From positions 11,102-75,101 of the forward strand of contig JAJPIC010000015.1 of the NCBI GenBank assembly GCA_021324915.1: a stretch of 64,000 nt of DNA, written 5' to 3'. This document shows positions 9,575-47,103 of the stretch, piece by piece. Below the pieces are notes generated by a model. It worked only from the letters and a program-made list of their open reading frames with translations, was not told the DNA's origin and did no database searches. Position numbers and translations under genes: made by a program. How positions within the stretch are numbered: the stretch's first letter is position 1; every line of letters starts with the position of its first letter. The DNA is from Beijerinckiaceae bacterium. GTDB lineage: Bacteria > Pseudomonadota > Alphaproteobacteria > Rhizobiales > Beijerinckiaceae.

Positions 9575-9671
9575 CGCAAGAGCGTTCAGCCGCAGTTCAT
9601 CGGCCGCCTCTAACAACTGAAGCGTTGGATGAGCAGCGGCGATGTTCTACGCCTTTGATGAGGAGGGTCTC

Positions 9672-10479: not shown

Positions 10480-13400
10480 GTGTCCATTTCTGCCGCCATT
10501 CATCACGTTACCCATTACCGCTACGACCGGCCGGTCGGCCTCGGGCCGCAGATCATCCGCCTGCGCCCTGCCCCGCATTGCCGCACGAAAATTCTGAGCT
10601 ACGCGCTCAAAGTCGAGCCTGCCGAACATTTCATCAACTGGCAGCAGGACCCGCATGGGAATTGGCTCGCGCGCCTCGTCTTCCCGGAGAAAACGCAGGG
10701 ATTGAAAATCGAGGTCGATCTCGTGGTCGATCTTGCCGTCATCAATCCCTTCGATTTTTTCATCGAGCCCTATGCCGAACATTTCCCCTTCGCCTACGAG
10801 CCGGAGCTCAAAGCGGATCTTGCGCCTTATCTCGAAGCCGAGCCGCTCGGGCCGCGGCTTGTGGCCTATCTCGCCCATCTGCCGAAAGGCCAGATGCAGA
10901 CGGTCGCCTTTCTCGTCGCGCTCAACAGCCAGCTCCAGCAGTCGGTGCGCTATCTGATCCGCATGGAGCCCGGCGTGCAGGCGCCGGAAGATACGCTGGC
11001 GCTTGGCTCGGGCTCGTGCCGCGACTCGGCCTGGCTGCTCGTGCAGCTCCTGCGCCATCTCGGCCTCGCAGCGCGCTTCGTCTCGGGCTATCTCATCCAA
11101 TTGCGTCCCGACATCGAGCCGCTCGACGGACCGAAGGGCACGCAGCACGATTTCACCGATCTGCATGCCTGGGCCGAAGTCTATGTGCCGGGCGCCGGCT
11201 GGATCGGCATGGATCCGACCTCAGGCCTTTTCTGCGGCGAGGGCCATATTCCGCTCTGCGCGACACCGCATTTTCGCTCGGCCGCACCGATCCATGGAGC
11301 GGTCGAGCCGGCGCAAGTCGATTTCAGTTTCGACATGGACGTACGCCGCATTGCCGAGGCGCCTCGGATCACATTGCCTTTTTCCGAAGAGGCCTGGGCA
11401 AAGCTCGATGCTTTGGGCGAGCGCATCGACGCCGATCTTTCGGCACAAGACATGCGCCTCACGATGGGCGGCGAGCCGACCTTCGTCTCGATCGACGATG
11501 TCGAATCCGAGGAATGGAACACCGCCGCCGTCGGCCCGACGAAGCGCATGCGCGCCGACGATCTGATCCGCAGATTGCGCGAACGTTTCGCGCCGGGCGG
11601 CATGCTGCATTATGGCCAAGGCAAATGGTATCCGGGCGAGACCCTGCCGCGTTGGGCCTTCGCGCTCTATTGGCGCAAGGACGGCAAGCCGATCTGGAAA
11701 GATGCCAGCCTCATCGCGCCCGTGCCATTGACGCGAACGGGGGGCGGCCCGCGCGAGCATAACGAGATCTCCTGCATGGAAGCACGGACGCTGATTGAAG
11801 CCGTCGCGACGCAGCTCGGCATCGAGCAGGACTGCATTCTTCCGGCTTATGAAGATCCCGCAGTCTGGCTCGTCAAGGAAGGCAATCTGCCGGAGAATGT
11901 CGATCCGCTCGATCCGAAGATCGAGGATGCGGAAGAACGCAATCGCATGGTCCGCACATTCGCGCGCGGCCTGACCATGCCTTCCGCTTATATTCTTCCG
12001 GTGCAACGCTGGAACACAAAGGCCGACCGGCGCTGGACGAGCGAAAAATGGAAGCTCAGGCGCGGACGGCTTTTTCTTGTTCCGGGCGATTCTCCCGTGG
12101 GGCACAGACTGCCGCTTTCCTCATTGCCCTTTGTCCCGCCTTCCGCCTATCCCTTCGTCGTCGCGCAAGATCCCCTCGAAGAGCGCGGCGCTCTGCCCGG
12201 CCCTTCGGAAATCGGCCAGCGGGCCGAGCGCAGCGGTCCGAGCGCGGCGGCGCAGGAGCTTGTCGAACAGCAGATTGTCGAAGGCGCGGTGCGTACCGCG
12301 CTCTCCATCGAGCCACGCGAAGGAATCCTTTGCGTCTTCATGCCGCCGGTCAAGACACTCGAGGATTATCTCGAGCTTCTCGCCGCGGTCGAAGCCGCCG
12401 CCGCGGAAAAGCGCATGCCGGTTCACATCGAAGGCTACGCGCCGCCCTTCGATCCGCGCCTTGCCGTGATCAAAGTGACGCCCGATCCCGGCGTCATCGA
12501 AGTCAATATTCATCCCTCGGCGGATTGGCGCGAGGCCGTCGCGACAACGAAGGGCCTTTACGAAGACGCGCGCCGCGCGCGGCTCGGGGCCGACAAATTC
12601 ATGACGGACGGTCGCCATACGGGAACGGGAGGCGGCAATCACATCGTCTTCGGCGGTCCGAGCCCGGCCAACTCTCCCTTTCTGCGCCGCCCCGATCTTC
12701 TGAAGAGCCTCATCCTTTATTGGCAGCGCCACCCTGCCCTTTCCTATCTGTTCTCCGGCCTCTTCATCGGGCCGACAAGCCAGGCGCCGCGCGTCGACGA
12801 AGCGCGGCATGACCAGCTTTACGAGCTTGAAATCGCGCTCGCCGGCATGCCGAAGCCAGGCGAACACATGCCCGGGCATGTGCCCCTCTGGACCGTCGAT
12901 CGGCTCTTGCGCAATCTCCTTATCGATTCGACCGGCAATACGCACCGCACCGAGATCTGCATCGATAAGCTCTATTCGCCCGATGGGCCGAGCGGAAGGC
13001 TCGGGCTCGTCGAATTCCGCTCCTTCGAAATGCCGCCGGACGCGCGCATGAGTCTCGCGCAGCAGCTCCTCTTGCGTGCATTGCTCGCCTGGTTCTGGCG
13101 CGAACCGCAAGAAGGAAATTTCGTGCGCTGGGGCACGGCGCTGCACGATCGTTTCATGCTGCCGCATTTCGTCTGGCAGGATTTTCTCGACGTGCTCGCA
13201 GATCTCGCGCGTGTCGGCTATGGATTCGATTCGACCTGGTTCGAGGCGCAGCGCGAATTCCGCTTTCCTCTTTACGGCGCGGTCGAGCGCGGTGGCGTAC
13301 GGCTCGAATTGCGCCAGGCGCTCGAGCCTTGGCACGTTCTCGGCGAAGAAGGCGCGATCGGCGGCACGGTGCGCTACGTCGATTCTTCCGTCGAACGGCT

Positions 13401-13833
13401 CGAAGTCAAAGCCAGTGGGCTCGTCGAGGGGCGGCACGTCCTTGCCTGCAACAGGCGTAGCGTGCCGATGACCTCGACCGGATCATTCGGCGAGACGGTT
13501 GCCGGCGTTCGCTACAAGGCGTGGAAGCCGGCGCGCGGCCTGCATCCGACCTTGCCGGTGAACGCGCCGCTCACCTTCGATATCGTCGATATATGGAGCG
13601 GGCGTTCGCTCGGCGGCTGCGTCTACCACGTCGCCCATCCGGGCGGGCGCAATTACGAGACCTTTCCGGTCAACAGCTACGAAGCCGAGGCCCGCCGACG
13701 CGCGCGTTTCCAGGATCATGGACACACGCCGGGCGCAATCGAAGTGCCGCGCGAGGAACGCTCAGCCGAGTTTGCCCTGACTCTCGACCTGCGCCGGCCA
13801 TGTCCCTCTCCCCGCCCGCGGGGAGAAGGCTAG
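10480..13833 (+). CDS. Transglutaminase-like domain + DUF2126 protein
   Basis: N-terminal HHVTHYRY, catalytic GSCRD / DLHAW / DPT, followed by a long ligase-like domain ([31 protein letters not shown]). Confidence 0.9.
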
Positions 13834-14761: not shown

Positions 14762-15664
14762 ATGAATGACCGGTTTTCCGCCCTAAAGCTTTTCATCCGC
14801 GTTGCCCGTACGGGCAGTTTTTCGCGCGCCGGGCGCGAGTTCGGCCTTTCCCAACCTTCCGCATCGCGGATCATAGCGGCGCTCGAGCGTGAGATCGGCG
14901 CCGTTCTCCTGACGCGCACGACGCGCGCCGTCTCGCTCACCGAAGCGGGCGCCGATTATCTCGCGCGCATCGAACCGATCCTGGCGGAACTGGAAGAAGC
15001 CGATCATGCGGCGCGCGGCACGGGCGAGATCCGCGGGCTCTTGCGCATCGGCCTTTCTTCGAGCTTCGCGCTGCGCGAAGTCATTCCGCGCCTGCCCGCT
15101 TTCATGGAGCAACATCCGTCATTGCGCGTCGATCTTCTGATGAACGACCAGCAACAGGATCTCGTCAACGATGGCGTCGATGTCGCGCTGCGCTTCGGTG
15201 CGCTGAAAGACTCGAATGCAACGGCGCGCCGGCTCGGCACGACGTGCCGCGCGCTCGTCGCTTCCCCGGCCTATCTCGCCAAGGCCGGAATGCCGCGCGC
15301 CCCGGCCGATCTCGCCGAACATTCGCTGATCCTCGGGCCCGCAGGAGCAAGCGCGAACAGCTGGACCTTCCGGCGCGACGGACAGACCGTTTCGGTGCGC
15401 GTCGAAGGCCGGCTGATGATCTCGGTCCATGAAGGCGCAATCGCTGCCGCCGCCGCCGGGCTCGGCATCGCGCTCACCGGACAATGGGGCTGCCTCAGCG
15501 AGTTCAAGAGCGGCGCACTCGTCCGCGTGCTTCCCGATTGGCAGATGGATTCGGCCGAAGTTCACGCGATCTTCCCGGCCGGCCGCGCGGCCAAACCTTC
15601 CGCGCGAGCCTTTGCGGAACATTTGGCTCTCGAGTTCAGGGGACCCGAGCAGCCGCGCAGGTGA
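14762..15664 (+). CDS. LysR family transcriptional regulator (CrgA-like), divergent from the SDR
   Basis: LFIRVARTGSFSRAGREFGLSQPSASR..LE..LG..LL.RTTR.VSLTEAG; start corrected to 14762. Confidence 0.93.
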   Translation: MNDRFSALKLFIRVARTGSFSRAGREFGLSQPSASRIIAALEREIGAVLLTRTTRAVSLTEAGADYLARIEPILAELEEADHAARGTGEIRGLLRIGLSSSFALREVIPRLPAFMEQHPSLRVDLLMNDQQQDLVNDGVDVALRFGALKDSNATARRLGTTCRALVASPAYLAKAGMPRAPADLAEHSLILGPAGASANSWTFRRDGQTVSVRVEGRLMISVHEGAIAAAAAGLGIALTGQWGCLSEFKSGALVRVLPDWQMDSAEVHAIFPAGRAAKPSARAFAEHLALEFRGPEQPRR

Positions 15665-15673
15665 TCTCGGCCT

Positions 15674-15717
15674 GTTCGTATTTTGTTCTGGACACGCTTC
15701 AGCTTCCAAGCTAGGAT
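15674..15717 (+). promoter_or_regulatory. LexA (SOS) box GTTC-N7-GTTC abutting a sigma70 promoter TGGACA-N17-TAGGAT
   Basis: GTTCGTATTTTGTTC at 15674-15688, -35 at 15689-15694, -10 at 15712-15717. Confidence 0.75.
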
Positions 15718-15856
15718 TTTTCTGCTGGCGACAAGGAAACGGGGATCATTGCGCCTGAGGTCTGCTCGGGCGCGAGGGGTGTATGTTGTTGCCCCTTGGC
15801 GAATCATTCCGCTGATCTTTCCAGACATCCGACGCCTGCGCTTCTTGGAGGCACGC

Positions 15857-16843
15857 ATGGTGAAGTTCGGATCGCGGATGTTCGGATTGGCCTTTTTGGT
15901 TCTGACGTTTCTTGGTTCGGGAATAGCCTATGCGGAGTCTCAACTCCCGAGCAAATCGCGTGTCGTAGCGGCGCTTCAGAACATCCTGGCCTTGGAGCGT
16001 CCGGGCAAGACCGGCTACGCGACGATCTACGACGGCAACAAATATATCCAGTGCGGACGCAGCATGAATCACAGCCTGCGCTGCGAAGCTGCGGGGACGC
16101 TGATGCAGCCCTCGCTCGCACATGTGCTCGTTCCAGAGCGGCTGAAAAGACTCCTTGCGCTCGGCTGGCATCTCGATCCGCATTTCGGCAATTATGTGCA
16201 GGTCTTCCCTGCCGAAGTTCCGCCGGAGGGAGTCGCAGACAAAATCCTGCAGACACTCTCGCAAGCCTACAGCGTCGATTTGGACAATCTGCAAGAAAAG
16301 ACGAAGTGGATTGAGAGCGGACTTTGTCCGCCGCGCAATGGGCCGACGCAAAATCTAGCGGGCATGATCGACGACGCGCCTGAGATGGCTTCGGTCGCGG
16401 TTCATGAATGCGCCTATACCGGACCTGATCTCGGAGACAAGTTCGAATCGACCGAGGATTTGATCGCGCACTATGGCAAGAGAGTCGCGGCTGAAATTCA
16501 AAGATTGAGGATCAATCCCGACCAGGACATTTTCTTCGTCTTGAGCACCGAGATCGGCTTCGTACAATGTGCACCGCAATCCGTTTCGGAGATTTTTTGC
16601 GAAGCCCAGTCGATCGATAGTTGGCCGGCGCTCGCGGCGGTTCTCACTTCCGATCGCATCGCCCGCTTGCACGCTGCCGGTTACGAAGATCCCGGCCGTT
16701 CGCAAAATTATAGGAAAGTCTATTCGCTCGACAAACTCGACGATATGGCGATCGCCCGTGAATTACTGGCGGTCCTCCACGACGCCTACGGCTACCTGGG
16801 ATTGCCGGCGCTTAAGATAGAGACCGAGACCGGTCATTCATAG
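15857..16843 (+). CDS. Secreted hypothetical protein with two tandem TY-Chap/YbjN-like domains
   Basis: RBS GGAGG before ATG 15857; signal peptide; internal duplication YIQC..LRCEA...L..LGW..D...NY and FVQC..IFCEA...L...GY.DP...NY. Confidence 0.72.
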   Translation: MVKFGSRMFGLAFLVLTFLGSGIAYAESQLPSKSRVVAALQNILALERPGKTGYATIYDGNKYIQCGRSMNHSLRCEAAGTLMQPSLAHVLVPERLKRLLALGWHLDPHFGNYVQVFPAEVPPEGVADKILQTLSQAYSVDLDNLQEKTKWIESGLCPPRNGPTQNLAGMIDDAPEMASVAVHECAYTGPDLGDKFESTEDLIAHYGKRVAAEIQRLRINPDQDIFFVLSTEIGFVQCAPQSVSEIFCEAQSIDSWPALAAVLTSDRIARLHAAGYEDPGRSQNYRKVYSLDKLDDMAIARELLAVLHDAYGYLGLPALKIETETGHS

Positions 16844-47047: not shown

Positions 47048-47069
47048 AGGCGTACTCCATAGCCCGTAT

Positions 47070-47103
47070 GTTCCCTTTATATTCCTATTATGTTCTATGT
47101 CAA
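47070..47103 (-). promoter_or_regulatory. Sigma70 promoter TTGACA-N16-TATAAA overlaid by a triple LexA half-site array
   Basis: Plus strand GTTC(47070)-N7-ATTC(47081)-N7-GTTC(47092); -35 at 47103-47098, -10 at 47081-47076. Confidence 0.85.

Follow-up and report, generated by a model that had tools for sequence, protein, structure and literature searches.

The 64,000-nucleotide (nt) stretch of DNA analyzed here, which we call the window, is part of contig JAJPIC010000015.1 in an assembly (GCA_021324915.1) from a Beijerinckiaceae bacterium. Our subject is a gene at positions 15857 to 16843 of the window, which encodes a 328-amino-acid protein with two related TY-Chap3 domains, and the LexA-type operator located upstream of it. 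Operators of this type were enriched upstream of homologous genes in several alphaproteobacterial families, and the protein has the features of a Sec-type signal peptide. From these results, we propose that LexA controls the gene as part of the SOS regulon and that the gene product acts in the periplasm as a single-chain pseudo-dimer, which would bind a peptide client while the SOS response is on; we consider this reading likely.

The operator, the promoter, and the LexA motif

The sequence GTTCGTATTTTGTTC at positions 15674 to 15688 is a direct repeat of the form GTTC-N7-GTTC, which is the published LexA box of the Alphaproteobacteria and Caulobacter (PMC3323433; PMC12700426). The original prediction had placed this box flush against the promoter-like sequence TGGACA-N17-TAGGAT, and all of its coordinates were found to be correct. 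Specifically, the -35 hexamer TGGACA (15689 to 15694) directly abuts GTTCGTATTTTGTTC, and a 17-nt spacer separates it from the -10 hexamer TAGGAT (15712 to 15717). This was the only promoter-like site that a consensus scan identified on the forward strand before the gene. The transcription start predicted from this promoter lies near 15724, which puts the operator between about -50 and -36, before the -35 hexamer. A GGAGG sequence is located at 15847 to 15851, 5 nt before the ATG codon at 15857. The preceding gene, which codes for a LysR-type regulator, has the same orientation and ends with a stop codon at 15664; the box lies within the 192-nt intergenic region. Because the LysR-type gene is co-oriented, the downstream gene is the only one that this region serves. 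The transcription unit can be described as follows.

15674..15688, forward strand: LexA operator of the alphaproteobacterial type, GTTCGTATTTTGTTC; direct repeat GTTC-N7-GTTC with an AT-rich spacer
15689..15717, forward strand: sigma-70-type promoter TGGACA-N17-TAGGAT; promoter scan, 9/12 matches
15724..15856, forward strand: predicted 5' leader of about 133 nt, from the putative transcription start to the ATG codon
15857..16843, forward strand: coding sequence (P0001) of the predicted exported tandem TY-Chap3 protein, 328 amino acids; open reading frame (ORF), Pfam, and alignment

The bare GTTC-N7-GTTC pattern was found twice in the window, and 1.93 matches were expected by chance. In the 3.07-Mb genome, the pattern was present 72 times and a reversed control pattern was present 99 times; thus, it was not above the chance level in either case. 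Since the bare pattern could not carry the LexA claim alone, we used matrix scores and conservation instead. The significance of the site comes from its AT-rich spacer and flanks, from its position flush on the -35 hexamer, and from its conservation upstream of homologues. The matches in the genome that have an AT-rich spacer are located at ssb, the imuA-imuB pair, comM, a radical-SAM gene (a double box), and lexA, and the recA gene has two sites with one mismatch each.

Two scoring matrices were used. Matrix A (21 nt) was derived from boxes that precede homologues of the target gene, with the window excluded, and was used to scan the genome. Matrix B was built from ten sites in the genome itself, which are located at lexA, recA, ssb, imuA, comM, the radical-SAM gene, and the dnaE region. 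The target site scored 20.2 bits on matrix A, which made it the 13th-highest-scoring site in the genome and placed it above the recA, comM, and lexA sites; it scored 19.7 bits on matrix B. The matrix A scan also retrieved the ssb, imuA-imuB, recA, comM, lexA, and radical-SAM promoters of the genome. Because a matrix derived from the TY-Chap3 family retrieved known SOS promoters, the motif upstream of the family is the LexA motif and not the motif of another regulator.

Conservation of the operator upstream of homologous genes

Homologous loci were identified with a profile-guided scan in which each species was represented by a single genome. The scan yielded 78 loci, and the 57 loci with intact genes were analyzed. 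The locus set was built from two peptide patterns and thus underestimates the size of the family, and the start codons of the homologues were approximated from a conserved anchor. The 78 loci came from the Nitrobacteraceae and Xanthobacteraceae (Rhodopseudomonas, Rhodoplanes, Afipia, Bradyrhizobium, Tardiphaga, and Pseudolabrys), the Beijerinckiaceae, Devosia, Aureimonas, the Caulobacterales, and many uncultured Alphaproteobacteria.

The original prediction proposed that conservation of the box should be checked in homologues, and a box was present for more than half of them, in all parts of the protein tree. We found 39 exact boxes in the 26.2 kb upstream of the 57 homologues and 7 exact boxes in the remaining 326.7 kb of the same loci. 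These numbers correspond to densities of 1.49 and 0.021 per kb, respectively, or an enrichment of about 70-fold, and the enrichment would still be several-fold if all 7 of the other boxes were intergenic. When matrix B was used, 33 of the 57 upstream regions (about 58%) scored above the 99th percentile of 625 control windows; about 0.6 regions would be expected to do so by chance. The matrix B scores of the 57 loci were bimodal, with values of 10.2 bits or higher or of 6.8 bits or lower. Culturable bacteria that carry a copy with a box include Rhodopseudomonas palustris, Rhodopseudomonas pentothenatexigens, Rhodoplanes roseus, Rhodoplanes tepidamans, Devosia riboflavina, and Aureimonas glaciei.

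Of the boxes, 23 are in the forward orientation and 14 are in the reverse orientation. Of the 32 loci with a box, 16 have an upstream gene that runs in the same direction as the homologue; therefore, the box in these loci cannot belong to a divergent neighbor. The presence of the box was scattered over the protein tree (16 changes versus a shuffled mean of 18.8), which fits an old association with repeated loss.

Two sister loci, L016 and L043, which cluster with the window, have a box followed by TGGACA or TGGACG, a 17-nt spacer, and a -10-like CTACAC or TACAAC sequence. Their proteins are only about 55 to 57% identical, yet the box-TGGAC-N17 layout is the same. The leaders in the sister loci are only about 30 to 40 nt long versus the 133 nt predicted for the target. 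We considered whether the target leader contains a structured RNA element, and this idea was ruled out because the leader had no Rfam match, its fold stability was at the level of shuffled sequence (z = -0.81), and the leaders in the sister loci are short.

Exact boxes were also found 72 nt upstream of the starts of two single-domain exported relatives, P0150 and P0156. In one locus with a boxed single-domain relative (L087, 1369-1443), a second, divergent box serves a gene for a 66-amino-acid zinc-ribbon-like protein; the gene that follows in this separately boxed operon encodes an SOS-response-associated peptidase domain (PF02586). In another locus (L089), boxes are located at 788-802 and 1429-1443, and the preceding gene, which codes for an unrelated cysteine-rich protein of 196 amino acids, has its own box. 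The idea that the two domains are encoded by a split gene pair that forms a heterodimer in this locus was rejected, since the upstream gene product is this unrelated protein and not a homologue of domain 1.

Other LexA-type sites were observed in the window and in the genome. The only other GTTC-N7-GTTC match in the window (GTTCAGCCGCAGTTC, 9584-9598) has a GC-rich spacer and is located upstream of an ORF at 10480-13833. It had no LexA-site score in the matrix scan and is probably a chance match. An overlapping double site (TATGTTCCCTTTATATTCCTATTATGTTCTAT) at 47067-47098 of the window scored 27.0 and 21.4 bits. The highest LexA-matrix score in the genome, 31.4 bits, belonged to a site on another contig (C10:1624-1668), where a 43-nt stretch with a box, a -35 hexamer, a spacer, and a -10 hexamer (GTTCTTATTTTGTTC-TGGACA-...-TTAGGC) is 84% identical to the target promoter and heads the gene for a 723-amino-acid DUF4132 protein (C10:1706-3877). 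This near-copy may be a duplicated SOS promoter module. Strong LexA-type sites were also found at C28:16221-16241 and C15:157258-157318 (29.3 and 26.1 bits). One of these sites adjoins a gene for a 323-amino-acid protein without a Pfam match, and the other adjoins an ORF at a locus 2.5 kb from recA. The N terminus of the product of this ORF presumably resembles an IS1595-like transposase.

A further box, GTTCTTGTTATGTTC (C7:155816-155830), is located 199 nt upstream of a gene for an HtrA/DegP-like periplasmic protease (C7:156015-157559) and is identical to a published Caulobacter LexA box (PMC12700426). A wider periplasmic branch of the SOS response that includes this protease was considered but was not supported, since the box is kept in only 2 of the 30 orthologues in the genus; the protease is probably not a stable member of the regulon.

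The protein, its family, and its distribution

As originally described, the ATG codon at 15857 starts the next co-oriented gene, and this gene encodes a signal peptide, as judged by a heuristic reading of the sequence, and two related domains (27% identity, E = 3e-9). The parts of the protein are as follows.

15857..15934, forward strand: predicted Sec-type signal peptide, residues 1-26, with cleavage between AYA and ES; sequence heuristic
15944..16327, forward strand: TY-Chap3 domain 1, residues 30-157, with C66/C76; Pfam, 26.1 bits alone, and AlphaFold2 model
16325..16435, forward strand: inter-domain linker, residues 157-193, with C157-PPRNGPxQNLAG and C185; family alignment
16436..16834, forward strand: TY-Chap3 domain 2, residues 194-326, with C238/C248; Pfam, 25.7 bits alone, and domain model

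The only family that matched the protein was the Pfam family TY-Chap3 (PF22552), with E = 5e-12 and 46.9 bits versus a gathering cut-off of 27, in two stretches. When the halves were searched singly, both matched the profile with scores slightly below the cut-off (26.1 and 25.7 bits). The TY-Chap-like assignment was thus upheld. Searches of NCBIfam, PADLOC, PHROGs, and the PDB sequences yielded no match to the 328-amino-acid protein, and the PDB search indicated that it has no sequence relative with a solved structure. The viral fold library provided nothing useful for this protein. We found 703 homologues; among the 120 matches listed, the lengths ranged from 300 to 354 amino acids.

The N terminus, MVKFGSRMFGLAFLVLTFLGSGIAYA followed by ES, has the elements of a signal peptide in a heuristic reading: a positive n-region (K3 and R7), a hydrophobic core (FGLAFLVLTFLG, residues 9-19, mean Kyte-Doolittle value of 2.59), an A-x-A motif (AYA before the E), and no lipobox. 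Nearly all of the 30 homologues that we aligned have the same N-terminal design. The mature protein would have 302 residues and a mass of 33 kDa, and it would be acidic (isoelectric point of 5.2). On the basis of these sequence features, we infer that the protein is exported via Sec and is a soluble periplasmic protein.

Six cysteines (C66, C76, C157, C185, C238, and C248) are invariant across the 30 aligned homologues. The cysteine pair in each domain (C66/C76 and C238/C248) had been given a C-x10-C spacing in the original prediction; the actual spacing is C-x9-C. The first pair is located on neighboring strands of domain 1, and disulfides in the exported clade are plausible; three are predicted for the target. 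The best-conserved stretch in the family alignment is the linker with the CPPRNGPxQNLAG sequence.

The full-length AlphaFold2 model contains two confident domains. In domain 1, where the predicted local distance difference test (pLDDT) score is about 85 to 96, the order of the elements is a helix, three strands, helices, two strands, a helix, and a strand. Domain 2 was modeled alone with a pLDDT score of 94.9 and a predicted template modeling (pTM) score of 0.89, and its main neighbors in the PDB are the chaperones SycE, CesT, SycH, SpcS, and SycT. These are weak matches (probability of 0.87 or lower, E of about 1e-2, and template modeling [TM] scores of 0.4 to 0.5). The resemblance in fold is consistent with the assignment to the TY-chaperone superfamily (PMC9503650) and is not independent proof of it. 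A likeness between the model of the whole protein and sliding clamps was rejected; the top Foldseek rows had a TM score of 0.11 and a root mean square deviation of about 18, and the likeness is an artifact of the repeated alpha/beta domains.

The only recurrent neighbors of the homologues are guaA (18 loci) and an ArsC-like gene (9 loci), and the remaining neighbors vary. The recurrence of guaA and the ArsC-like gene reflects synteny and not an operon. We found no ADP-ribose or defense genes associated with the family loci and no secretion or effector genes among the neighbors of the target or of its homologues, and PADLOC also had no match. The lack of defense genes is a matter of context and does not bear on membership in the sequence family.

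The genome that contains the window has one copy of the family. Within the genus, 2 of 31 genomes carry the family, namely, this genome and one of the 30 other species, and none of the 30 genomes that were sampled from other genera of the family and order carries it. The family is also absent from 14 control genomes, including that of Caulobacter vibrioides, the only alphaproteobacterial model that was directly checked, and none of the homologous loci recovered came from a Sinorhizobium, Agrobacterium, Brucella, or Rhodobacter genome. The second of the two copies in the genus (L076, G023:C2:56667-57609) is split over two frames and has a box with one mismatch; it is probably a decaying gene. 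The GC content of the target gene is 56% versus 62% for the genome. Because of its patchy distribution and low GC content, the gene is accessory in this lineage, and it may have been acquired together with its operator.

Proposed function, alternatives, and known systems

The results presented above are best accounted for, in our view, by the following series of events. In an undamaged cell, a LexA dimer would bind GTTC-N7-GTTC at about -50 to -36, flush on the -35 hexamer, and keep RNA polymerase off the promoter. When DNA is damaged, the self-cleavage of LexA that is stimulated by RecA would free the promoter, and a transcript that starts near 15724 would be translated from the ATG codon at 15857. 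The precursor would be exported by Sec and cleaved after AYA26, and the mature protein would fold into two TY-Chap3 alpha/beta domains, each probably with an inter-strand disulfide. The two domains would be joined by the cysteine-bounded loop that contains the invariant CPPRNGPxQNLAG sequence. While the SOS response is on, the tandem protein would bind or sequester a peptide segment that belongs to a protein of the periplasm or the envelope. A single-chain pseudo-dimer is the most likely arrangement because the class I chaperones of type III secretion and YbjN act as homodimers that hold extended peptides.

Several of our findings weigh against parts of this proposal. About 40% of the homologues (23 of 57) have no LexA site, which indicates that LexA control is dispensable for the family. 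The box is located upstream of the -35 hexamer and not over the -10 hexamer or the start site, and repression from such a position can be weak. The LysR-type gene has a weak terminator-like hairpin at 15657-15675 (6 pairs, 3 of them G-C) followed by a T-run (15657-15684 in all), and the T-rich spacer of the LexA box doubles as this T-run; these bases may thus serve both the terminator and the box. With regard to the protein, the relative placement of the two domains is uncertain (pTM of 0.51 and a linker pLDDT score below 50), and no fold match in the PDB reached an E value of 0.001 or lower, the TM scores being only 0.4 to 0.5. The QC...CEA pair is kept in some distant relatives that lack a signal peptide and are apparently cytoplasmic, so the cysteines need not be there for disulfides. 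In addition, no conserved neighbor in the homologous loci points to a client.

Some of these points could also be read as signs that this genome has the box only as a leftover or by coincidence and that the gene is expressed constitutively or under another regulator, such as the LysR-type protein encoded directly upstream. The chance frequency of the bare pattern in the window and the genome, the homologues without a site, the degenerate box and broken frame of the sole other copy in the genus, the position of the box, and its overlap with the weak hairpin and T-run would all fit this idea. However, the site outscores the recA, comM, and lexA sites of its own genome, the box-TGGAC-N17 layout is kept in sister loci with proteins of low identity, and the near-copy of the promoter that heads the DUF4132 gene is the top LexA-matrix match in the genome. 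Moreover, a LexA dimer that sits flush on the -35 hexamer should get in the way of RNA polymerase. We regard a leftover box as improbable.

A different question is what the protein does once it has been produced. With the same regulation and export, it could be a periplasmic inhibitor or immunity protein that acts against an envelope-damaging enzyme or toxin. The targets of such an inhibitor could appear in the cell or in its neighbors when the SOS response fires (e.g., a prophage endolysin, a bacteriocin, or a peptidoglycan hydrolase), and the cysteine-bounded CPPRNGPxQNLAG loop could be the inhibitory insert, much as a disulfide loop is the inhibitory element in Ivy, a lysozyme inhibitor of the periplasm. 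It would suit this explanation that the most conserved element of the family is the C157-C185 linker loop, which is outside both domains, and that the protein is predicted to be exported and is cysteine rich and acidic. The gene is also accessory and patchy and has a low GC content, which is typical of conflict genes, and TY-Chap3 was first described in conflict systems (PMC9503650). On the other hand, PADLOC and PHROGs yielded no match, the genes that recur as neighbors are guaA and the ArsC-like gene rather than a toxin, lysin, type VI secretion, or prophage gene, and no known lysozyme or protease inhibitor structure was among the top PDB matches. A link to defense or phages was likewise dropped as a candidate, since PADLOC, PHROGs, and the viral fold library provided nothing useful. 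We judge an inhibitor to be rather unlikely, if somewhat less so than a leftover box, and we return below to the peptide-binding pseudo-dimer under LexA control.

According to the original prediction, TY-Chap domains usually reside in the cytoplasm and have links to conflict systems. This statement is in line with the defining paper, in which the first description of TY-Chap3 concerned conflict systems and anti-viral systems centered on ADP-ribosylglycohydrolase (Iyer et al. 2022, PMC9503650). The target belongs to the same sequence family (PF22552), which has a predicted alpha/beta, peptide-binding, chaperone-like fold. In contrast to the described TY-Chap3 proteins, which lack these features and are located in conflict neighborhoods (PMC9503650), the target has a predicted signal for export, tandem domains, six invariant cysteines, and a LexA operator, and it is encoded by a lone gene.

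The class I chaperones of type III secretion and YbjN share the order of structural elements with the target domains (a helix, three strands, a helix, two strands, and a helix), and all are small acidic domains. The type III chaperones function in dimeric form, and a tandem pseudo-dimer would be in keeping with this. However, the match to them was weak (10 to 14% identity at the E values and TM scores given above), and they are cytoplasmic, are encoded beside effector or secretion genes, and are not controlled by LexA, whereas the target has a predicted signal peptide and no such neighbors. Thus, the target is not a type III secretion chaperone, and the likeness is in fold only.

The operator motif of the target and of its genome's lexA, recA, ssb, imuA-imuB, and comM genes is the motif of the alphaproteobacterial LexA regulon (Rhodobacter, Rhizobium, and Caulobacter). 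The described members of this regulon work in the cytoplasm or at the inner membrane, where their targets are DNA or division, whereas the target is predicted to be a soluble exported protein. SidA, a small inner-membrane division inhibitor of Caulobacter, is linked to the SOS response. Another envelope factor linked to the SOS response is HigX, a membrane-bound transcription factor of Caulobacter (PMC13384398). SidA and HigX are precedents for the SOS response reaching the envelope in the Alphaproteobacteria, but they have no kinship with the target in sequence or structure; they are membrane proteins (a small peptide and a transcription factor), and the target would be a soluble periplasmic protein of 302 residues.

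The regulatory logic of LexA and the Pfam domain family were already known. What appears to be new is the combination of a TY-Chap3 protein that has tandem domains, cysteines, and a predicted export signal with a widely conserved place in the LexA regulon, outside conflict neighborhoods. In the papers that we searched on TY-Chap domains, alphaproteobacterial LexA regulons, and periplasmic SOS genes, we did not find the family mentioned, and a passing listing in Erill et al. 2004 is possible. The absence of the family from C. vibrioides, and of the model genera from the loci recovered, may explain why it went unnoticed in regulon studies. The 2004 study reportedly included Rhodopseudomonas palustris.

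A more specific role can be proposed, and we offer it as a long shot: the SOS response could have a periplasmic branch with this protein as its effector, which would clamp an exposed peptide of a cell division or peptidoglycan synthesis protein, such as a periplasmic segment of the divisome. If so, division would be delayed, or the envelope of the filamenting cell would be stabilized, from outside the cytoplasm, and the protein would be a functional counterpart of SulA and SidA with an unrelated fold and location.

SOS regulons have been thought of as intracellular sets of genes for repair, mutagenesis, and division control, and the target would add a soluble exported protein to these sets. 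The operator is kept across several alphaproteobacterial families and upstream of both tandem and single-domain forms, which suggests that DNA damage also triggers an activity in the periplasm. Such an activity would fit recent evidence from Caulobacter that couples the SOS response to envelope maintenance (PMC13384398). TY-Chap3, which is known only from computational work, would gain a second and very different biological context, and inducibility by mitomycin C or UV light in culturable Rhodopseudomonas, Rhodoplanes, and Devosia would provide a simple experimental handle on this domain family.

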